Assembly: GCF_022483985.1 (NCBI RefSeq)
Contig: NZ_JAKVME010000003.1
Coordinates: forward strand, 9,442-73,441
Length of the DNA stretch: 64,000 nt
Direction of reading: 5' to 3'
From: Acetobacter sp.
GTDB lineage: Bacteria > Pseudomonadota > Alphaproteobacteria > Acetobacterales > Acetobacteraceae
Positions 49,311 to 60,808 of the stretch are shown here, piece by piece. The notes under the pieces are model-generated. The model did not search any database and was not told the DNA's origin. It saw only the letters and a program-made list of their open reading frames with translations. The first letter of the stretch is position 1; every line of letters begins with the position of its first letter. Position numbers and translations under genes: made by a program.

Positions 49311-49754
49311 AACAGGAAGGCCAAGGACATCGACGTGACCCGCGCCGATGTCGTCGAATTGCACCAAGGGCTGAAAGAGACACCCTATCAGGCCAACCGG
49401 GTGCTGGGCGTGCTGGCGAACATTCCCCGGATCGACGGCAATCCCTATGTGATCACCGGGAAGATGGAGGGCCAGTATCTGACCGACATCCAGAAACCCC
49501 GGCGGCGGCTTCGCACACGGGCCGGGCTGGACACGCTGCGTATCCATGATCTGCGCCATTCCTTCGCCTCGGACGCGCTCCAGCTTGGCGCGGACCTGAC
49601 CATGATCGGGCGGCTGCTGGGCCATACGCAGGTACAGACCACCGCGCGGTATGCCCACCTCAAGACCGATCCCGTCCGCACCACCGCCAACAAGGTGGCG
49701 GATGCCATCGCCAGCGCGCTCGGGCACGTCGCGCTAGAAAACAGGGTCAACTAA
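49311..49754 (+). pseudogene. tyrosine integrase remnant (N-terminus missing, internal deletion)
   Basis: ..DIDVTRADVVELHQGLKETPYQANRVLGVLANI joins directly to ..NPYVITG..LRIHDLRHSFAS..LLGHTQVQTTARYAHL. The catalytic R-H-R-Y C-terminal box is present, but about 130 aa of the core are absent. Confidence 0.75.
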
Positions 49755-49835: not shown

Positions 49836-50405
49836 CTACTTCAATCCAAGAAAAAATGACATTATCGCCACGAGCAATGGAAACACAACTCCCACTACCA
49901 GCTTTCCAAATATTCCATCCCAAAATCCTGTCGCGATTTTTTCAACCGCTTCATTCGTATGATTTATTTGATTAATCGTAACACTTCCATCAGATTGAAT
50001 ATTTCCGATAGATTGATTATTACCATTTGACCCAATCAATTTCTGAAGATCCAAAAAAGAGGCTGCTTCAGATATTAACCTAAAATCTCGTTGTGCTCTG
50101 TCCGTAAACCAAGCACCTGCAAGAAAAAGACTCAACGCGACCATTATGGTGATATTGTAGAATATCTTAAATACTTCATTTGAGGGGTCTGAAGTTATGT
50201 GCCAAAATGCTCTAACTACTATATATCTATCATAAAAATCCCGAACAATATCGGATTTCAAGGGGAAATTTGAAATATAAGATATTTTTAATACCTCTTC
50301 TATTAACAAAATTATAGCCATAAAACCACATAACCCCCCAAATACATATGAGGCCATCGCCCTATTACGCGCTTTTTTCAACATCAGAGACGGATCTTTC
50401 CACAA
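49836..50405 (-). CDS. hypothetical membrane protein (very AT-rich)
   Basis: 189 aa with 3 predicted TM helices. No recognisable motif. It sits between the integrase and methylase remnants. Confidence 0.45.
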   Translation of the reverse strand: MWKDPSLMLKKARNRAMASYVFGGLCGFMAIILLIEEVLKISYISNFPLKSDIVRDFYDRYIVVRAFWHITSDPSNEVFKIFYNITIMVALSLFLAGAWFTDRAQRDFRLISEAASFLDLQKLIGSNGNNQSIGNIQSDGSVTINQINHTNEAVEKIATGFWDGIFGKLVVGVVFPLLVAIMSFFLGLK

Positions 50406-50730: not shown

Positions 50731-51400
50731 ATGACCGACAATATGAATGGGGCCTTCCGTAATGTGATCCTTCACGGCGACAGCGTTGCCCTCATGCGGG
50801 CGATGCCGCGCGAGAGCGTGGATTTCATCCTCACCGACGCGCCTTATTCTTGTGAACTACCGGGGCCGGGACGGGCGGACGGTGCGCAATGACGACAACA
50901 CCGCATGGCTTCGCCCGGCGTTCAACCAGATGCACAGAGTCTTGAAGGACCGCGGGTTCGCCCTCTCGTTCTATGCGTGGAACCGGGTTGACCTGTTCAT
51001 GGCGGCCTGGAAGGCGGCGGGGTTTCGGCCCATGGGGCATATCATCTTTCGCAAGTCCTATGCGTCATCCGCCCGGTTCGTCCGCTACACCCATGAGGCG
51101 GCTTACCTACTGGCCAAGGGTGACGCGAAGCTGCCCCGCCAGTCCATCCCGGACGTGATCGACATGCCCTATAGTGGCAGCAGGATGCACCCGACACAGA
51201 AGCCCGTCGCGGCGCTATTGCCCCTGGTTCATGCCTTCTGCCCGGCTGGCGGCCTGGTTCTGGACCCGTTCTGCGGTTCCGGTTCGTCCCTGGTCGCGGC
51301 GCAGCATCTTGGCCGCGACTGGCTGGCATGGAACTGGACGCAACCCACGCCGCCACGGCATCTCGGCGGCTGGCCTATTGGGGCGAGAGACGGGCGGCGG
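50731..51400 (+). pseudogene. ICE-type N6/N4 DNA methyltransferase, frameshifted
   Basis: MTDNMNGAFRNVILHGDSVALMRAMPRESVDFILTD reads in one frame. The rest (..LVNYRGRDGRTVRNDD..MHPTQKPVAALLPLV..VLDPFCGSGSSLVAAQHLGRDW) reads in another, so the DPPY region is broken near 50850. The tail is shifted again after about 51320. Confidence 0.75.
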
Positions 51401-51879
51401 CATAAGTCGCCCCCTCCCTCTTTCCGGCCTGTCACCTACTACGAAGTAGTCGCGCGCTGATCCTTACGGATTGGAAGAAAAAACAAGACCGCATTAATCA
51501 CCGTTCCACTTGAAGCGCGCTCTGAATAATCGCGACCAACCTTCGCGTAATACGGTCTCGTTTTCCTTGCGGAGTCACCATGATCACCCCCCTCTTTCGT
51601 CCACAATTCGCACCGCAGATTCAATGTGTGATTGATCGCCTTTATTCCGAGACACTCTCGCAAGATCCAGCGATACGCCAATTGGCGCAAGCCAAAGGAC
51701 TGACACATGACGGCCAGCGTGGTTTCTACGAGGCCATGAAAGATGAGATCGTTCATCCGGTTGTTGCGGGGTGCGATGTCGTCGAATTCATCAGTCGGGT
51801 CGAGTGTGAACTCGTTCTCCATCGGCTCTTTCTTTTCGACAGTGCCTTCGCCCAGTTCAGGCTGACGGCGTCGGGCGGA

Positions 51880-52806: not shown

Positions 52807-53229
52807 ATGATGCCAACGATGACGAGCAAGAATGATGGGGGCAGCATCGCCGTCGATGCTGTTCACAAAGCCGCAGGATCGCGAGACTGGCGGCATAACA
52901 ATCGGACGCGTGCCCTACTGGCAAGCGAACCTAAGCTCAAAACCATTGTTCGTCTGGCAAAGCAGAAGCTGGGAGCGAAGCAGGTCTGGATTTTCGGGAG
53001 CCGGGCCACCGGTACAAATCGCCCTGATAGCGACTGGGATATTTTCCTCGTTCTTCCGAACCGTGCCAGTGACAGTGACCTCAGTCCCAGCAAAACCTGG
53101 GCCGTCGGTCGAGAGGCCGGCCTGATTGCGGATATCGTCGCTGAACGAGACGCCGAGATTCGCTCGACCATCAACGTGCCCAACACATTGTCCTATATTC
53201 TTCACCGTGAGGGTGTGCGCGTTGGCTAA
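52807..53229 (+). CDS. nucleotidyltransferase-domain protein (MNT-type antitoxin candidate)
   Basis: Minimal NTase motif IFGSRATGTNRPDSDWDIFLV (GS-x9-D-x-D). Confidence 0.65.
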   Translation: MMPTMTSKNDGGSIAVDAVHKAAGSRDWRHNNRTRALLASEPKLKTIVRLAKQKLGAKQVWIFGSRATGTNRPDSDWDIFLVLPNRASDSDLSPSKTWAVGREAGLIADIVAERDAEIRSTINVPNTLSYILHREGVRVG

Positions 53230-53686
53230 AACGCCCGATCCCGTTGCAAAGAAGATCGGCTCGCAGATCTGGCTGGCCAATAATTTCCTCAGTGATGCGC
53301 GCCTGCTCCACGCTTCCGGCAGCCGAAATGCGGTCAACCAGCTTTTCTACGCGGTCGAGGCCGCCCTGATTGCCGTCATGACTGCGGAAGGGATCCATAT
53401 CGGACGTCAGCATCAGCACCAGCTCGGCGCCATTCTCGATGACCTGCCTGACGATAACCCGTTGAAACCGGGGTTTCGTGAGGTTGAGGTGCTGACGGCT
53501 TATGCGACCACCTATCGTTATGCGACACCCGGCGGCAATATTCCCCGCGCTCCTGATCCGGATGACGTCGATCGCTGGCAGGAAACGGCTTCACGTCTGG
53601 TCGAAACCATCACACGACATTTCGGGGTGACGGTCACACCAGATGCGTTCAATGCGATAGCAGACGTTACCTCGCCCCCTCGCTAA
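53213..53686 (+). CDS. HEPN-domain protein (toxin candidate of an MNT/HEPN pair)
   Basis: GTG at 53213 (or 53207/53222) overlaps the MNT stop. The helical protein has AVNQLFYAVEAALIAVMTAEGIHIGRQHQHQLG, which is HEPN-like. The R-x4-H motif is not a clean match. Confidence 0.5.
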   Translation: MCALAKTPDPVAKKIGSQIWLANNFLSDARLLHASGSRNAVNQLFYAVEAALIAVMTAEGIHIGRQHQHQLGAILDDLPDDNPLKPGFREVEVLTAYATTYRYATPGGNIPRAPDPDDVDRWQETASRLVETITRHFGVTVTPDAFNAIADVTSPPR

Positions 53687-53852: not shown

Positions 53853-54170
53853 TCACGCGCCAGCCTCCCTGCGGAATCGCCAGACCGGAATGCCCATCTG
53901 CTTGGCCTTGTCGGCCAGATTGTCCTGTATGCCCGATCCCGGAAACACCATGATGCCGACGGGCAGGACTTTCAGCAGGGCGTCGTTGCGCCGGAACGGG
54001 GCGGCCTTGCCATGCCGGTTCCAGTCGGGTTTGAAGGCGATCTGGGCAACCTGCCGATGATCGGCCCAGCGGGAGGCGATGAATTCCGCGCCCTTGGGTG
54101 AACCGCCATGCAACAGCACCATGTCGGGATGCTTCTCGCGCACCTTGTCAAGATGGTTCCAGATCAGAAG
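53853..54170 (-). pseudogene. DUF2493 (SLOG-like) ICE protein, N-terminally truncated
   Basis: ..LDKVREKHPDMVLLHGGSPKGAEFIASRWADHRQVAQIAFKPDWNRHGKAAPFRRNDALLKVLPVGIMVFPGSGIQDNLADKAKQMGIPVW. The upstream part of the ORF is unrelated sequence. Confidence 0.6.
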
Positions 54171-54487
54171 ATGACCAGCTCGGCGCGGTGCGACAGCAGC
54201 CCGTGCTGGAGATTGATCGCCGCCAGAGGCGCGGGGAGATTGCGCAGGTACGACGATGGCGCGCCGACCAGACTGCACATCTGGCCAAACGACCAGTGCG
54301 TGGGCGCGATCGGGTCATTCTGTCCCGGCACGGTCAGGGTCAGGGTCATCATCCGATCCGCAGCGAACGCCAGCATCTCACGAACAAAATCGCCATCCGA
54401 CGCTTGCTCCACAAGCTCCAGCAGCGCCATCTTCTCGCCGGTCATCGTCAGGTCCTTCAGGTTCATTTCGCACCCGAACCCTATCAA
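54164..54487 (-). pseudogene. chimeric scrap: IS256-family transposase N-terminus fused to a DUF932-like ICE gene fragment
   Basis: MALLELVEQASDGDFVREMLAFAADRMM is IS256-like. It is followed by LTVPGQNDPIAPTHWSFGQMCSLVGAPSSYLRNLPAPLAAINLQHGL, which is DUF932-like. Confidence 0.45.
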
Positions 54488-55093
54488 AGACCGGCGATGG
54501 CCGCCTCAGCGGCCAATCTCACTCCTACACCACGCCCCGTGACAGCGATTCCGCCGGTGAGCGTATTGTCGTCACATCGCGCAATTTCCACTAATCAATA
54601 AGGCCGCCGATAAAGCTCACGCCATCGTGAAGCGCCCCGATTTCAGCCCAACCTACGCTGGAGTTTCACTCCCGTTTGCATCCTATACGGATCCTGCGCG
54701 TATGTCCCAAACGCAGAAAGCCGCCCTTACGGACGGCTTAACATGCTGATGATGTTGGATAATGTATGGTTGCGGAGGCACGCAAACCCCGATACCGACA
54801 GTCACTTCAGGCGGCAATATAATTACGTGATGTCAGTAGTTTAATACCTTAAATTAGGACAGGCACTCAGTTTAGCTCCACGAAGCGGCATCAGTTCAAG
54901 AAGCTATATATCGTCAACATTTGGACCCATCATCCAACTCAGCCTTTTTGCGTATAATAAGTTATCGACCCATCACTCTCTTCCGACCAGGCAGAGCACA
55001 CATTCTTAAAATCAATCAGAATAACCAGCATTCGGCGCTCTTGCATCTATACCCAGAGCTTAAATTACGCTTTGCTTTTTATTAGCACTATCC

Positions 55094-55963
55094 TCAAGCA
55101 CATAATTCTACGGGCTCCAAACCAAGAGACTCCGGCATTCTTAGTTTTTTTGATAATATTAAAAGTTCTTTTCCAATACGTTTTTTTTGGACTGAATAAT
55201 TTATATCAAATCCGAACTGCCGTCGTTTTTTATATAAGTTTTGAATTTCAGGCACAAAATCGTAGGTTACAATCCATGGGCACTTAATTCCCATCACGGC
55301 TTCAGAAAGTTTTTGATGGTCTTCAGCATCATAAAAACTTGTATATAAAGACGATCCCTTATTATAATAGGGAGGATCAATACAAAACAAAACTTTTTCG
55401 TCAAAGAGCAATGATTTATTTTTTATGTAAGATGAAGCATCTTCATTTGTAAGGTTTATTCTATCTTTATACTTGAAAACCCTTTCAATTCTTGATATTA
55501 GATCCTCCTTATTAAACCTACAATCAATCTTATAATTACCTTCTTGAGACAGTCCTCCAATAACCCCAGCCCCTTTTATGATACCAGATCTATTCGTTCT
55601 GTTTAAAAAGAATGCAGAAAATCCCAAAGATAAAGGGTCTCTAATATCCTGCTGCAAAAACATTTCTCTTTGTCTATGCCATTCGTGCATGTTGACCGGA
55701 GTATATGTAATCATATCTAAAAAATCTCTATTATGATTTAATACACTAAACCAAAATGCATAAATAGCCGGGTCTATATCGTTAATATGAATATCTGAGA
55801 CCTCTCCTCCATAAAGCAATGTCAAAGCTAACCCAGCCCCTCCTGCAAACGGCTCCACATAATGGCCCCGCTCCAATTTATTTAACTTCAATATGTAGGA
55901 CACCATCTCGGCTAGACAGGTTTTGCCACCGGGATAGCGCAGCGGGGATACAGTTCGTGCCAT
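55094..55963 (-). CDS. Dam-family (D12 class) N6-adenine DNA methyltransferase
   Basis: SPLRYPGGKTCL, YVEPFAGGAGLAL (SAM site) and CIDPPYYN (DPPY catalytic motif). ATG at 55963. Very AT-rich. Confidence 0.85.
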   Translation of the reverse strand: MARTVSPLRYPGGKTCLAEMVSYILKLNKLERGHYVEPFAGGAGLALTLLYGGEVSDIHINDIDPAIYAFWFSVLNHNRDFLDMITYTPVNMHEWHRQREMFLQQDIRDPLSLGFSAFFLNRTNRSGIIKGAGVIGGLSQEGNYKIDCRFNKEDLISRIERVFKYKDRINLTNEDASSYIKNKSLLFDEKVLFCIDPPYYNKGSSLYTSFYDAEDHQKLSEAVMGIKCPWIVTYDFVPEIQNLYKKRRQFGFDINYSVQKKRIGKELLILSKKLRMPESLGLEPVELCA

Positions 55964-56009
55964 TACCAATCATACCAACTCGAAAAATGGGCTATAAAGC
56001 ATCAACATC

Positions 56010-57500
56010 TCATCCAGATTTTTTCTCTGCACTCTGTTTAATTATATCTTCAATGCACGCATTAACCAATGGTGCTATCGCTTCCATATCATTCGCCAAC
56101 TGGTGTCCATAAAAATTTGCAGAGGTTCCATGGTGTTTCGTCGTATTGCCATGTTCTGAAATTCTTTTAACCGCTTGGTTGAATGCATTATATGTTTCTT
56201 TTTCTTGAAACCCGTAAGCTTTTACCTTTTCCTTACTCCAAAACGATATAAAATCATTATTGGGTCCTTTCCCTGCGAGGGCAGCTAGTGATTCAAGAAA
56301 GGCCCAGCATCCAACTGATAATAAGGGCGTATTGTCATACAGAGACACATTGCAAAGTGAACAATATAGACTTTCTAGTTTTTTACTTTTTATTTTCTTC
56401 AGACCATCAAGTATATTCGAATGATTTTGGATGTATTTCTGCGTACTTGGACGAATCTGTCGCCCAGAGTGATCTCCATTATTTTTAGAATCGACTTCGT
56501 TATCTCGTTCGAAATCTGGATCGGTTTTATCCTTACTTCCCTCCTCAGTTGTTCGATCTGTCTGATTTTCGGTAGGAGAATTACCCGCATCATGAGTTGA
56601 GGCGTTGTCAGATGTCTCTTTAGATATTTTCCTACCGGATGAGTGATCAAGTGCCGCCGATGGTGTTTTCGGTGCCTGGTCTATCAACGGCCATTTCAAA
56701 ATTCTAGGGCTATCAGAAGTTTCTAGGTGAATTAATTTATCAGCATATTTATCAATTTCAGCTTTTTTTGCCCGAGAATTCACAACTCCAGACAAAAGAT
56801 CTTCAATAAATAACTTTGACAAGTCATTAAAAGTTTTCTTATTTCTATCAGTACAAACAATATCATCATCATTAAGAGATAGTCCGAAGCATAATTCTCT
56901 TATTTTTGAATTGCTCAAATATCTTTGTACCGTTGTTAATCTTCCTTTTCTATTTCCGTTTTCTATAATCGACTCTCTCTCAGAATAATCCAAAAATTCT
57001 AAAGCAAATTTATTCTTATCATTTTTCTGTTTGTCTCTAATGAACCTAGATTTTTGATCGGCGTCCCAAGATTTCCGGCCTATGCCACCATTTTGGCCGG
57101 AATGATTTCGTTCTACCCAAATGCTAGCATCATCTACATCAGAAAAAATCACACATCTTACAGAATTTATACCTTCAAACGACTTCTCAAGTCTTTTGAA
57201 TTGGGACTTAAATTTGGTCGGAGCAAGTTCTGGATCTTTGAGAAGTTTCAATGCACATAAGCGCCGATTGCCCTCGACGACTTCATATGCGCCTTGATTG
57301 CCAGCCACAGGTATAACAGCAAACATTTCAATGGGGCTCAAGCCATTGGTTGCTATATCTCGAGCCAATGGATAGACATCTTCTTTATCACAAAGATACT
57401 CTATTGCATCAGATTCTGTTCCTGACGGAGTATGCCTGGGATTTTTTAAATCAAGAAATAGTTTAGAAAGACTAATATTTTTTATATCTCGCTTTACCAC
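56010..57500 (-). CDS. ParB/Srx N-terminal-domain protein with a disordered acidic linker and an unknown C-terminal domain
   Basis: GTG start. LFLDLKNPRH and YEVVEGNRRLCALKLL (GxxRxxA arginine patch). A low-complexity S/T/D/E/N stretch near the middle. The C-terminal ~130 aa are unassigned. The gene lies 46 bp upstream of the Dam gene on the same strand. Confidence 0.7.
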   Translation of the reverse strand: MVKRDIKNISLSKLFLDLKNPRHTPSGTESDAIEYLCDKEDVYPLARDIATNGLSPIEMFAVIPVAGNQGAYEVVEGNRRLCALKLLKDPELAPTKFKSQFKRLEKSFEGINSVRCVIFSDVDDASIWVERNHSGQNGGIGRKSWDADQKSRFIRDKQKNDKNKFALEFLDYSERESIIENGNRKGRLTTVQRYLSNSKIRELCFGLSLNDDDIVCTDRNKKTFNDLSKLFIEDLLSGVVNSRAKKAEIDKYADKLIHLETSDSPRILKWPLIDQAPKTPSAALDHSSGRKISKETSDNASTHDAGNSPTENQTDRTTEEGSKDKTDPDFERDNEVDSKNNGDHSGRQIRPSTQKYIQNHSNILDGLKKIKSKKLESLYCSLCNVSLYDNTPLLSVGCWAFLESLAALAGKGPNNDFISFWSKEKVKAYGFQEKETYNAFNQAVKRISEHGNTTKHHGTSANFYGHQLANDMEAIAPLVNACIEDIIKQSAEKKSG

Positions 57501-57734
57501 GGGGCCTCACAAAAAGTTCTAATTTGACTAATATGTGCCTTAAGAATACCCAGAACCATCTCTACCCGCAACGGTTGCCCGAATTCCATTCAGAATTAAC
57601 TCAAATACGACAAAGGGAGCCTAGAATTTCCCAAACCTGTGGCGATGAACCGTTCCAACAGGTGTTATGAGAAATGTGAAATCGGGATGCCTTGGCCGGT
57701 TCCGGGCATCAATATCTCAGCATAGACGGAAAGA

Positions 57735-57818
57735 TTACGTTAGCCGGGTGGAGAGCAGCAGAAATGTTACCTTCATGCGCTTGTCGTCCTTGATCGGGCC
57801 GAGCCTCAGCTTCGTCAG
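57735..57818 (-). pseudogene. DUF2274-like ICE gene stub (start codon lost, truncated)
   Basis: LTKLRLGPIKDDKRMKVTF.. follows trbI as in Tn4371/ICE backbones. The expected overlapping ATG reads CTG, and homology stops after about 20 codons, where the AT-rich cassette begins. Confidence 0.5.
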
Positions 57819-59014
57819 GGCTGGATTTCCTTCGTTCTCCAGGGCTTGAGAACCAGATCGTGGTTCAGAATAAGCGTGAACGGTAGACCCGGCCGGTCGG
57901 TCAGCGTCGGCTGGACGTTAAGGCTGCGATCGATCAGGCGGTTGCCTACCATGGAAAACCCGTTACTAGCCCCACTGCGGATCGCCTGCATCAGGTTGTT
58001 CTCGTTCCACGACGTCCCGGCTTCGGAGCCCACGCTGAGCAGGGTTGTGACCAGCGCCGCCCTGAAAAGCTGTCCCCAATGGTTGTTTACCTCATCGGAC
58101 AGGCCGGACTGACCGATGGCGTCGCCACCGGGCAGCTTTTCCAGCACCAGGCTCTCCCCGTTCAGGTAGATCAACCGGGTCCAGATGATCTGGGTCCGCT
58201 GCTGCCCGAAGGAAACACTGCTGTTATAGGCCCCGAACAGGGTGCTGCCCTGCGGGATCAGCAGGAATCGGCCGGTCGGGCTGTCATAGACGTTCTGGGT
58301 GACATGACCGACAATCTGACCCGGCAGATCGGAGCTGATTTTCGTATTCAGCGCACCAGCGATGACAGTACCCGCCTGCAGAACGTATGGCGAGGTCGGG
58401 AGCATAATCCGGTCGGGACTCACCGTCGCACGGTCTGACTGACCCGCCAGAAAGGCGCGATTGCCAGCCTGCTGGTCGGTTCCTGCCGATGATGCCTGCG
58501 CTCCGGGAGCGGTCGCCATCACCGGCACCGCCTGCGCACTCTGCCCCTCCCGCACCTCGACCTGCGCGAAAAGTCGGCTGGTGCGCGCCGCCTCGATTTC
58601 CTGGTCGCCGCGACGATCCTCCATGCCGGGAACCGGTCCCGCACGTCCCTGCCACTGCGCGTTGACGATCGGCCGGCCCAGATCGCCGGGCAGAGGCTGC
58701 CCCAGCTTCGGGGCATTGGTATAGTCGCGGGGCAAAGCCGACAGCCCGTCGGCCGAGGCACGCGCGTCGGTATCCTGTGCCGCCTGAACCGGTCCTTTTG
58801 GCGTGTTGCCTTGCAGCGCGTAGCCCAACGCGAGACCGATGGCGAGCATTCCGATGGCCCCCAGGGTCCAGATGACGGGGCGCGAAAGCTTTACGACCGG
58901 CGGACGCTGCGCGCGCAGCCGCAGATCGGGTGGCACTGCTGATCCCGGCCCCGCTGCGCTCCCGTTGCCAATAGCGCCTCCGTCCTCACCCGGGCGTTCT
59001 TCCGCGCTGCTCAT
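57815..59014 (-). CDS. trbI: conjugal transfer protein TrbI (VirB10 family)
   Basis: Gly/Pro-rich N-terminus, a single TM (VIWTLGAIGMLAIGLALGYAL) and a conserved C-terminal VirB10 barrel sequence (QAGTVIAGAL..DLPGQIVGHVT..). Confidence 0.85.
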   Translation of the reverse strand: MSSAEERPGEDGGAIGNGSAAGPGSAVPPDLRLRAQRPPVVKLSRPVIWTLGAIGMLAIGLALGYALQGNTPKGPVQAAQDTDARASADGLSALPRDYTNAPKLGQPLPGDLGRPIVNAQWQGRAGPVPGMEDRRGDQEIEAARTSRLFAQVEVREGQSAQAVPVMATAPGAQASSAGTDQQAGNRAFLAGQSDRATVSPDRIMLPTSPYVLQAGTVIAGALNTKISSDLPGQIVGHVTQNVYDSPTGRFLLIPQGSTLFGAYNSSVSFGQQRTQIIWTRLIYLNGESLVLEKLPGGDAIGQSGLSDEVNNHWGQLFRAALVTTLLSVGSEAGTSWNENNLMQAIRSGASNGFSMVGNRLIDRSLNVQPTLTDRPGLPFTLILNHDLVLKPWRTKEIQP

Positions 59015-59265
59015 GACTTTCTGCCATCCGTGCGCACGATACGCACGCGCTGCTCGGAATGTTTGTCACCCAGACGCAATTCAGCGGCGGCAAACAGGCG
59101 GTCGACGATCATCCAGTTCTGCCGCATCCGGTAATTGACCAGTTCCGGGCCGCCATCGGACCCAAGCACGAAAAGCGGCGGCAGTTCCCCCTGTCCGATC
59201 CCGGCCGGAAACGCGATATAGACCTTGTGGCCATCGTCAAACGCCCGGCCAGGCAGCCAGGGCGG
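59011..59265 (-). pseudogene. trbG: TrbG (VirB9 family), C-terminal fragment only
   Basis: ..AFDDGHKVYIAFPAGIGQGELPPLFVLGSDGGPELVNYRMRQNWMIVDRLFAAAELRLGD... It joins directly to the trbD 3' end. Confidence 0.7.
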
Positions 59266-59524
59266 CGTAGCGGAGATGCCGCCGTCCGACCTCGACGAAC
59301 AGCGGATCGCGTTTGGCACCCCAAACCGCGAGGCTATGCCCCACGATCCAGAATACCGCCCCGACCAGCCAGAGCCGCAGACCCAGCGAGATCGCGGCGC
59401 CCAGCGTGCCATTGGCGATGGCCAGCGTACGGGGTGCCCCGCCCAGCAGGATCTGGTCGGTCAGCGAGCGATGCACCGGGACATGAAAGCCCGGCACCGC
59501 GTCATCGTCATATCCAGCGCCCAT
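59237..59524 (-). CDS. trbD: TrbD (VirB3 family), C-terminus altered by the deletion junction
   Basis: MGAGYDDDAVPGFHVPVHRSLTDQILLGGAPR..LWLVGAVFWIVGHSLAVWGAKRDPLFVEVGRRHLRY. The ATGA overlaps the trbC stop. Confidence 0.7.
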   Translation of the reverse strand: MGAGYDDDAVPGFHVPVHRSLTDQILLGGAPRTLAIANGTLGAAISLGLRLWLVGAVFWIVGHSLAVWGAKRDPLFVEVGRRHLRYAALAAWPGV

Positions 59525-59853
59525 CAGATCAGCGCTCCACCGCTGAAGCTGAAGAACGACAGGAAGAACGAGCTGGCCGCAAAAGCGATGGACAGGCCGA
59601 AGACGATCTGGATCAGGCGGCGGAAGCCACCAGAGGTTTCCCCGAACGCCAGCGTCAGGCCGGTCACGGTGATGATGATCACCGACACGATACGCGCTAC
59701 CGGTCCCTGCACGGATTCCAGAATCTGGTTGAGCGGTTCCTCCCACGGCATGTCCGATCCGGACGCCAAGGCCGAGGAGCACCATGCGATGGACAGCAGC
59801 ACGGCGGAAAAGACAGGCGCGTGCCGACGCACGCGAAACAGCGTGATGTTCAT
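59524..59853 (-). CDS. trbC: TrbC (VirB2 pilin family)
   Basis: MNITLFRVRRHAPVFSAVLLSIAWCSSALA signal, MPWEEPL and two TM helices. The ATGA overlaps the trbB stop. Confidence 0.75.
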   Translation of the reverse strand: MNITLFRVRRHAPVFSAVLLSIAWCSSALASGSDMPWEEPLNQILESVQGPVARIVSVIIITVTGLTLAFGETSGGFRRLIQIVFGLSIAFAASSFFLSFFSFSGGALI

Positions 59854-60808
59854 TGGAAATCTCCATCGGTATCGATTGAATGAATGCGATAGGCGCCTGT
59901 GGCGGGGTCGATCCCGTCCACGGTGGCGAGTTCGGACAACCGGCGCTGTGTGCCTCGCCCCGACAGGACAGCGATCACGTCGATCGTCTCGGCGATCAGC
60001 ACGCGGGGCACGGTGACGACGATTTCCTGGATCAACTGCTCCATGCGATGCAACGCGCCGATGGCGGTGCCGGCGTGGAGCGTACCGATGCCGCCAGGAT
60101 GGCCCGTGCCCCACGCCTTGAGCAGGTCGAGCGCCTCGGGACCGCGCACCTCGCCGATCGGGATACGGTCGGGCCGCAGGCGCAGGGCTGAACGGACCAG
60201 TTCGGACAGGGTGACGATGCCATCACGGGTGCGCAGGGACACGAGGTTGGGTGCCGCGCATTGCAGTTCGCGCGTGTCCTCGATCAGCACGACCCGGTCG
60301 TCGGTTTTCGCGACCTCGGCCAGCAGGGCATTGACCAGCGTGGTCTTGCCGGTCGAGGTTCCGCCCGCGACCAGGATGTTCTTCCGGTCTGCTACAGCGC
60401 GACAAAGGTATGCTGCCTGCCCCGCTGTCATGATCCCGGCAGCGACATAATCGTCGAGGGTAAACACGGCGACGGCGGGTTTGCGGATGGCGAAGCTCGG
60501 GGCCGTCACCACGGGCGGGAGCAATCCCTCGAACCGTTCGCCGGTCGGCAATTCGGCCGAGACACGCGGGGCACCGTCATGCACCTCCGCCCCAACATGA
60601 TGCGCTCAGCGTCGGCGAGTGTGATGACGTCGCCCGTGTCGGACAGGCCCTCCGACAGACGGTCGATCCACAGCCGCCCGTCCGGGTTAAGCATCACCTC
60701 GACCACGGAAGGATCGGCAAGGTGCCCTGCGATCGCCGGCCCCATCGCTGTGCGCAGCATGGAAATGCCACGTGCCTGACTTTCCGAATTATGGTGCGAA
60801 ACCGCCAT
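59850..60808 (-). pseudogene. trbB: TrbB (VirB11 ATPase), broken by a small deletion/frameshift near 60590-60600
   Basis: The N-terminal part (MLRTAMGPAIAGHLADPSVVEVMLNPDGRLWIDRL..ADAERI) is in one frame. The rest ([27 protein letters not shown]..) is in another. Confidence 0.8.

Follow-up and report, generated by a model that had tools for sequence, protein, structure and literature searches.

The DNA analyzed here is a 64,000-nucleotide stretch of an Acetobacter sp. genome (NCBI RefSeq assembly GCF_022483985.1, contig NZ_JAKVME010000003.1, positions 9,442 to 73,441 of the forward strand), referred to below as the window; coordinates without a locus label are positions in it. Between trbI, the last intact gene of a trb operon, and a fragment of a DUF932 gene, the window carries an acquired AT-rich block of 2.8 kb that contains only two genes, both intact and co-oriented on the minus strand, encoding a ParB-like protein (A) and an adenine methylase (B). 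The block is almost certainly cargo encoding the antiphage defense system PD-λ-5. Its features are the following.

54959 to 57761, minus strand: the whole AT-rich cassette, with a 5′ leader, PD-λ-5_A, PD-λ-5_B, and a 135-nucleotide (nt) 3′ tail (delimited by GC content and junctions)
56010 to 57500, minus strand: PD-λ-5_A, 496 amino acids (aa), a candidate ParB-like sensor-effector (PADLOC PDLC04000)
56676 to 57500, minus strand: A residues 1 to 275, a ParB/Srx-type N-domain and a helical ParB-like second domain (Foldseek against PDB)
56478 to 56672, minus strand: A residues 277 to 341, an acidic and polar disordered linker, expanded in the window copy (predicted local distance difference test score, pLDDT, <50)
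56013 to 56453, minus strand: A residues 350 to 496, a family-specific all-alpha C-terminal domain (model pLDDT, 92.8)
55094 to 55963, minus strand: PD-λ-5_B, 289 aa, a Dam-family (D12, alpha-class) N6-adenine DNA methyltransferase (PADLOC PDLC04018, Pfam PF02086)

Both proteins match PADLOC models of the PD-λ-5 components. A aligns to PDLC04000 (PD-Lambda-5_A; E = 2.5e-148) over residues 5 to 487, corresponding to profile positions 4 to 425 of 428, and at least 26 models annotated as PD-Lambda-5_A match it at E ≤ 0.1; B matches PDLC04018 (PD-Lambda-5_B) over its full length (E = 2.1e-121). The original prediction, made from the sequence alone, had proposed an unconventional methylase-linked defense system, and the full-length match to a validated antiphage system agrees with this, but the prediction missed the prior description: the system is already named and hence is not new, and the block is to be labeled PD-λ-5 in annotation rather than presented as a discovery. 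Judged from its sequence, the window very probably holds an intact, functional copy of PD-λ-5, a horizontal acquisition that came to lie directly behind trbI in a trb (type IV secretion) element that has since become defective.

Functional selection in Escherichia coli ECOR7 brought PD-λ-5 to light. Once cloned, the system gave broad phage protection, strongest against T-even phages and extending to λvir (its selection phage); of ten diverse phages tested, only one was unaffected (Vassallo et al. 2022, PMC9519451). Its cloning required an mrr-deleted host, its supplementary table entry reads "ParB/HEPN, methyltransferase," and its discoverers view it as a compacted restriction-modification (RM) plus abortive infection (Abi) system (PMC9519451). 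In a 2025 survey, one of the cargo hotspots in Pseudomonas PAPI-1-type integrative and conjugative elements (ICEs) proved to be enriched in PD-λ-5 (PMC12629846). The ParB-plus-methylase architecture, the defense activity, and ICE carriage are thus already published; transposon carriage, exchange between ICE lineages, and partner swapping by the methylase, described below, are new here. A literature search found no paper solving the mechanism of PD-λ-5. Like the prototype, the window copy combines a ParB-like protein of roughly 430 to 500 aa, which ends in a helical C-terminal domain, with a D12 methylase in the same order and is carried on a mobile element. Unlike the prototype, whose context is an E. 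coli P2 prophage, it belongs to the PDLC04000 subfamily, drawn mostly from Alphaproteobacteria, and it has an acidic linker of ~65 residues, a position at the end of a trb operon, and an unusually low GC content of 0.37.

The relatives identified in P2-like phages proved to be a different, three-gene variant with a cytosine methylase. This variant occurs in phage Wphi (L085, 29505 to 32684) and phage vB_EcoM-12474II (L087, 1 to 3653). Its first protein has in common with A only the ParB-like N-terminal ~150 residues, its second is unassigned, and its cytosine-5 methylase is divergent (DruM-like by PADLOC in vB_EcoM-12474II and annotated as "DNA cytosine methylase" in Wphi).

Protein A starts at a GTG codon with GAGG six bases upstream, and the motifs LDLKNPRH and VVEGNRRLCALKL are both present in it. 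Among 8,000 candidates scored, 401 homologues were recovered at E ≤ 1e-5; these are ~420 to 450 aa long and mostly annotated as hypothetical, and none contains a Pfam domain. No significant sequence-level match to A was found in Pfam, NCBIfam, or PDB, whether with the single sequence or with whole-family and C-terminal-domain profiles, and Pfam ParBc (PF02195) was matched by 0 of 40 family members. An AlphaFold model built from a 40-homologue alignment has a mean pLDDT of 84, with residues 277 to 341 as its sole disordered part, and this confident domain model gives boundaries throughout A, including those of the unassigned C-terminal domain. In Foldseek searches of the PDB, the N-terminal half (~265 residues, 253 to 275 aligned columns) is most similar to ParB (7bm8_A; E = 3.5e-4, probability 1.0) and also to Noc and KorB, the three spanning E = 3.5e-4 to 8e-3 at probability 1.0, while PadC and sulfiredoxin match the first domain only. 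In the model, residues 1 to 275 have a ParB/Noc/KorB-like fold, a similarity that is structural and lacks sequence-level support. The ParB/Srx N-domain that the original prediction had placed in this 496-aa protein was therefore recovered by structure, not by sequence.

Several parts of the N-terminal half are invariant or nearly so across the 40 aligned homologues, among them N20-P21-R22-H23 and E76-G77-N78-R79-R80...A83, in which the GxRRxxA signature typical of ParB/Srx folds can be read; W128, R131, and H133 are invariant, and G135 is conserved, together with a GGIGR stretch (G139 and G141 invariant, G138 at ≥90%). With the ParB/Noc/KorB clamps, which depend on cytidine triphosphate (CTP), A shares its best structural match (~265 residues) and the GxRRxxA pattern, but it differs from them in having no detectable sequence similarity, no ParA partner, no parS site, and no ParB C-terminal dimerization domain, and in that an invariant W..R.H motif replaces the ENLQR-type catalytic helix. 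Of the hallmarks of CTP binding and hydrolysis, only the GxRRxxA signature is seen in A. The protein also recalls DndB and DpdB, ParB-superfamily proteins that stand beside a DNA-modifying enzyme in self/nonself systems; those proteins, however, act in or regulate the modification step of multigene systems (phosphorothioate, 7-deazaguanine), whereas here one enzyme would carry out simple adenine methylation and A has an extra domain of its own.

The two halves of A are joined by the linker, which in the window copy is an acidic stretch of 65 residues, as the original prediction had described; most homologues have a short, basic, lysine- and proline-rich linker instead, and only 2 of the 40 aligned homologues carry an insertion at this site (P0002, of comparable length, and P0039, shorter). 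Modeled alone, the C-terminal 147 residues form a helical bundle at high confidence (pLDDT, as listed above, 92.8), in which K374, C383, G397, W399, F401, G451, T454, K455, H456, Q467, and N470 are invariant. An exhaustive hidden Markov model search of 1.84 billion representative proteins found this domain confined to the C terminus of proteins with the same architecture, and Foldseek found no significant structural neighbor for it, with nothing below E = 0.5 in PDB or BFVD. The best HEPN entries in these two databases reached template modeling (TM) scores of 0.40 to 0.42 at E > 2, an hhalign comparison with a bona fide HEPN protein, the one encoded in the window itself, gave no match, and the conserved arginine and histidine of A are spaced R446-x9-H456, unlike the canonical HEPN Rx4-6H. 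The C-terminal domain, unassigned in the original prediction, thus remains so after a fold search that matched neither a nuclease fold nor a known nondefense family, and the earlier observation that no canonical restriction endonuclease is present holds, no recognized nuclease fold having been found in A. Candidate targets for mutagenesis, drawn from conservation across hundreds of diverse homologues, are NPRH, GxRR, W128/R131/H133, T454-K455-H456, and Q467/N470.

Protein B, predicted earlier to be an intact Dam-like methylase, has intact FAGGAG and DPPY motifs and matches Pfam PF02086 (E = 2.4e-12) and the PADLOC MTase_II model PDLC03358 (E = 1e-106). It is 289 aa long when read from its ATG; the open reading frame (ORF) list extends it to a TTG at 55969, while gene callers on related metagenome contigs picked the same ATG, and with this start the gap between the two co-oriented genes is exactly the 46 bp reported before. 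Across 75 copies of B, conservation is 0.6 to 0.97 in most 10-residue blocks, the interval between FAGGAG and DPPY included; residues 81 to 90, 101 to 110, 181 to 190, and 221 to 230 are variable (0.39 to 0.47), as are the final ~10 residues. Conservation of the segment between the S-adenosylmethionine-binding and DPPY motifs points to one shared specificity. Mrr restricts methylated DNA, and the need for an mrr-deleted host is taken as a sign that the methylase of the E. coli system is active.

The two genes are closely tied. Looked for in other genomes, as the original prediction had suggested, the pair is conserved: in 76 of 80 genomic loci, a homologue of B (49 to 66% identity) lies directly downstream of A on the same strand, and in three of the four loci without B the contig breaks off. 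Only L017 (5146 to 8053) clearly has A on its own: a tandem pair of A-type genes adjoins a ResIII-type helicase and pentapeptide-repeat proteins, and the nearest 6 kb contain no B-type methylase. When the window is compared with a related metagenomic copy (L082), the synonymous divergence (dS) is ~0.09, and the ratios of nonsynonymous to synonymous divergence (dN/dS), 0.066 in A and 0.016 in B, indicate strong purifying selection on both genes, which offers indirect support, at the sequence level, for retained function of the window copy.

Anchoring the comparison on B gave a complementary view. In 61 metagenomic loci with enough upstream sequence, an A-type gene lies directly upstream of B in 41 and a divergent A in one more. 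Elsewhere, methylases of the B clade (41 to 50% identity) have other defense proteins in the same upstream, same-strand slot: OLD/GajA/AriA-like ATPases of 513 to 573 aa (AAA_15/AAA_21; L100, L116, L133, L134, L137, L151, L165, L167), Schlafen/AlbA_2 proteins (PADLOC PDC-S50; L127, L144), and Druantia DruE (L106, L107, L114). In L158, the upstream partner is a 573-aa protein with no match in any library. A therefore appears to sit in a slot otherwise taken by known or suspected defense effectors, all of which share a B-clade methylase as partner. This comparative evidence indirectly suggests that A is the effector of a methylase-linked immunity built from modules.

The block stands out sharply in composition. 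Between ~54,959 and 57,761, its GC content is 37%, compared with ~60% in the flanks; in 300-nt windows, GC falls to 0.29 to 0.44 across ~54.8 to 57.7 kb, against 0.59 to 0.70 on the trbI side and 0.56 to 0.64 on the other, and the two-gene span itself (55,094 to 57,500) is at 0.370, versus 0.598 at 57.8 to 64 kb and 0.608 at 51 to 54.6 kb. This gap far exceeds sampling noise, and the sliding windows reproduce the AT-rich block of about 54.9 to 57.7 kb that the original prediction had pointed out. The flanking features are the following.

57815 to 59014, minus strand: trbI, the final intact trb gene, immediately upstream of the cassette and in the same orientation (Pfam TrbI, E = 1e-55)
57762 to 57818, minus strand: DUF2274 remnant, the first ~19 codons, with ATG changed to CTG and the frame continuing to a stop at 57735 (Pfam PF10038)
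54164 to 54487, minus strand: N-terminal fragment of a DUF932 gene, the first backbone gene past the cassette (tblastn)

The frame that begins at 57818, just past the trbI stop, reads LTKLRLGPIKDDKRMKVTF and thereafter consists of unrelated residues until the stop at 57735. The earlier claim that the DUF2274 gene following trbI is reduced to a stub of ~20 codons is supported by a match to positions 2 to 21 of the 69 in Pfam DUF2274 (PF10038; E = 8.5e-4, a score under the Pfam gathering threshold owing to the short length) and by alignment to an intact 80-aa DUF2274 protein whose gene overlaps trbI on an Indioceanicola plasmid (L084); the start codon has decayed. We place the 5′ junction of the cassette at ~57,762 because DUF2274 homology ends there, and its 3′ end at 54,959 (GGTCGATAACTT) because three metagenome sister contigs stop matching the window at that point. 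About 360 nt 3′ of B, in backbone-like sequence at 54716 to 54735 on the minus strand, a 7-bp GC-rich hairpin with a GTAA loop is followed by TTTCTGCGTTT; it may be the operon terminator, though a consensus scan gave no flag there.

The same three sister contigs (L081, L082, L083) carry the cassette after trbI with the same DUF2274 junction. Compared over 54959 to 58930, their identity to the window is ~80 to 88% across trbI; at ~58.0 kb it rises to 94 to 100%, a level that holds over the stub and both genes until the match ends abruptly at 54,959. This step in identity indicates that the cassette passed between diverged trb elements more recently than the elements themselves split; as read from the alignments, homologous recombination through trbI would most simply account for the exchange. 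Together, the GC drop, the truncated DUF2274 gene, and the identity step uphold the earlier proposal of a separate acquisition. The accompanying picture of a high-GC ICE backbone interrupted by the block needs a small correction, as this backbone is not intact and its trb operon has decayed: what remains at 59011 to 60584 is partial trbB, trbC, trbD, and the last ~80 residues of trbG, followed by trbI, and trbE, trbJ, trbL, and trbF are absent from the window operon. Sister contigs L081 and L082 retain trbE-L-F-G. With these genes lost, the window element is probably no longer self-transmissible.

In other genomes the pair is mobile by a different route. Its GC content is below that of its flanks in 73 of 73 loci tested (median, −9.7 points), with the window as the extreme at −23, and in 21 to 23 of these 73 genomic loci (~30%) an IS1595-family transposase (Pfam PF12762, PF12760), diverged about as much as A and B themselves, lies convergent just after B. 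Leader, A, B, and transposase there form a 3.6-kb transposon unit between terminal inverted repeats of 20 to 28 nt (GGCGATTATATAC...). Four such IS1595-family units with A and B are flanked by 8-bp target duplications.

L010, 5690 to 9266
L047, 5656 to 9214
L064, 5553 to 9212
L073, 5686 to 9295

Units of this kind are also present in L022, L024, and L078. The inverted repeats and 8-bp duplications show that in those genomes PD-λ-5 is the passenger of an insertion sequence (IS), and a literature search found no description of an IS1595-family carrier of the pair. The window cassette itself has no IS1595 transposase (best tblastn E = 1.6) and no IS1595 inverted repeat within 7 mismatches, and the search for flanking target duplications gave only chance-level repeats; with no IS1595 traces present, an IS1595 origin of the window copy stays conjecture. 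A pair of the same subfamily occurs in the temperate Paracoccus phage Pkon1, and no near-identical cassette DNA was found in plasmids. Two routes of spread thus emerge for the pair, carriage within IS1595-family transposons and recombinational exchange among related conjugative elements.

These distributions bear on the alternative that the original prediction had offered, a mobile anti-restriction or epigenetic module, here taken as linked to transfer: DNA would be protected by the methylase before it is transferred, and partition or regulation would fall to the ParB-like protein. ParB-methylase combinations are common on plasmids and ICEs, the pair lies directly after the trb operon and is co-oriented with it, and the best structural matches of A (ParB, Noc, KorB) are partition or regulatory proteins. 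The same pair, however, is also found at a distance from any conjugation genes, whether chromosomal, within IS1595 transposons, or in a phage; a TrbI relative is encoded in 0 of the 80 genomic loci; A has neither a ParA partner nor a ParBc match, and a family-specific domain replaces the ParB dimerization domain; and homologues show a direct defense phenotype. We regard this weaker reading as very improbable.

The organization of PD-λ-5 is most likely RM-like, with B marking self DNA and A serving as a noncanonical sensor-effector. As in classical type II RM systems, one alpha-class N6-adenine methylase stands in close linkage with a single partner gene, and the logic by which methylation marks self is probably common to both; unlike in those systems, the partner A lacks a PD-(D/E)xK, HNH, GIY-YIG, or PLD nuclease fold. 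In the scheme we favor, B, as a Dam-family N6-adenine methyltransferase, would mark its own DNA at one fixed short motif, which we infer because its motifs are intact, conservation extends over nearly its whole length, and an mrr-deleted host was needed in the E. coli work. A would bind DNA through its ParB-like N-terminal half, would probably bind a nucleoside triphosphate (NTP) given that the GxRRxxA nucleotide-binding signature is kept, and would recognize incoming DNA that lacks the mark of B. The position of A in an effector slot beside a shared methylase is as this self-marking model predicts, and methylation probably does serve as a self-mark for A. What A would then do to the invader or the infected cell is more speculative: the ParB/Srx domain might have nuclease or NTPase activity, or the C-terminal helical domain might be the one that acts, and if that domain were HEPN-like (the discoverers' label, not confirmed here), RNA cleavage and abortive infection would be implied. 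Any specific effector chemistry is doubtful at present. A more tentative proposal still is that A would be a restriction protein of a new kind, an NTP-gated, possibly CTP-gated, ParB-type DNA clamp that reads the adenine methylation laid down by B and, on unmarked DNA, fires a family-specific helical effector outside all known nuclease folds, with the swappable partners (A, OLD-like ATPases, Schlafen-like proteins, and DruE) making up a broader class of "methylase plus plug-in effector" immunity. If the ParB-like half is indeed a methylation-reading nucleotide switch, it would represent a new principle of discrimination between self and foreign DNA.

Several observations weigh against the identification of the window block as an RM-like defense system. 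Phage resistance has been shown only for the ECOR7 system, the window copy being placed by family models, and the related P2-phage proteins share only the N-terminal ~150 residues with A, at ~30% identity. The HEPN assignment of the discoverers was not reproduced, given the Foldseek values (E > 2), the negative hhalign comparison, and the R446-x9-H456 spacing, and searches by Pfam, NCBIfam, PDB sequence, and Foldseek found no nuclease family or fold in A. L017 indicates that A can persist without an adjacent B. T-even phages resist most classical RM systems, so the fact that protection in E. coli is strongest against them suggests that simple restriction of unmethylated DNA may not suffice as an explanation. 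Finally, the minus strand upstream of A showed no sigma-70-like promoter; it also showed no terminator-like site between trbI and A, making possible a read-through from the trb promoter by which the cassette might be expressed in its decayed element.

The preference for T-even phages, whose DNA is modified, also raises the question of whether A might instead resemble type IV enzymes such as GmrSD, BrxU, and SspE and attack modified phage DNA, in which case B would not be a self-mark. In these enzymes, too, a ParB/Srx-fold domain, in their case the NTPase domain DUF262, heads a defense protein and the presumed effector is at the C terminus. They are, however, modification-dependent single-gene systems with a DGQQR motif and a DUF1524/HNH nuclease, whereas A has EGNRR, matches neither HNH nor DUF1524, and comes with an obligatory methylase partner; a modification-dependent enzyme would have no need of the strict linkage of A and B seen in the 76 of 80 loci and could even suffer from it. 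λ DNA is not hypermodified, and the E. coli system also acts on λvir and most of the ten diverse phages. A type IV-like mode has, in our estimate, only a slight chance of being correct.

A less remote alternative to RM-like defense, if still an unlikely one, is that the pair serves chiefly as a selfish addiction module, as many RM pairs do. Loss of the cassette would dilute methylation, A would kill the cell, the ICE remnant would be stabilized, and phage defense would be a by-product. Such a role would fit the retention of an element that can no longer conjugate, the tight pairing with the methylase as the more conserved partner, the travel of the pair on transposons, phages, and ICEs, and the presence of another stabilizing pair, an MNT/HEPN toxin-antitoxin, next to the cassette. 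The E. coli homologue, on the other hand, protects from a plasmid without any stabilization context, and the retention of A without an adjacent B in L017 argues against unconditional lethality when methylation is absent; addiction is moreover compatible with defense.

The remainder of the window around the cassette records further rearrangement. The 107-aa DUF932 fragment has 53 to 79% identity over residues 8 to 105 to DUF932 proteins of rhizobial plasmids (tblastn), and an initial assignment of the start of the 54164-to-54487 ORF to an IS256 transposase fragment was dropped when tblastn identified it as the DUF932 N terminus. The fragment overlaps the start of the next gene, DUF2493/YspA (SLOG) (region 53853 to 54487, minus strand), which suggests a further deletion on this side. 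An overlapping MNT nucleotidyltransferase and HEPN pair, typical of a toxin-antitoxin or defense module, lies at a distance of 1.4 kb from the cassette, at 52807 to 53686 on the plus strand. The window encodes another DNA methylase (Pfam N6_N4_Mtase) at 50786 to 51460 (plus strand), beside another AT-rich patch (GC ~0.32 at 50.0 to 50.45 kb), which encodes a 189-aa probable membrane protein (49836 to 50405, minus strand), and a C-terminal fragment of a tyrosine recombinase is found at 49335 to 49754 (plus strand). Other low-GC stretches are at 47 to 48 kb, just past a LysR gene (0.37), and across 15 to 26 kb (0.43 to 0.55; mean, ~0.48), and the window is a mosaic of several acquisitions.

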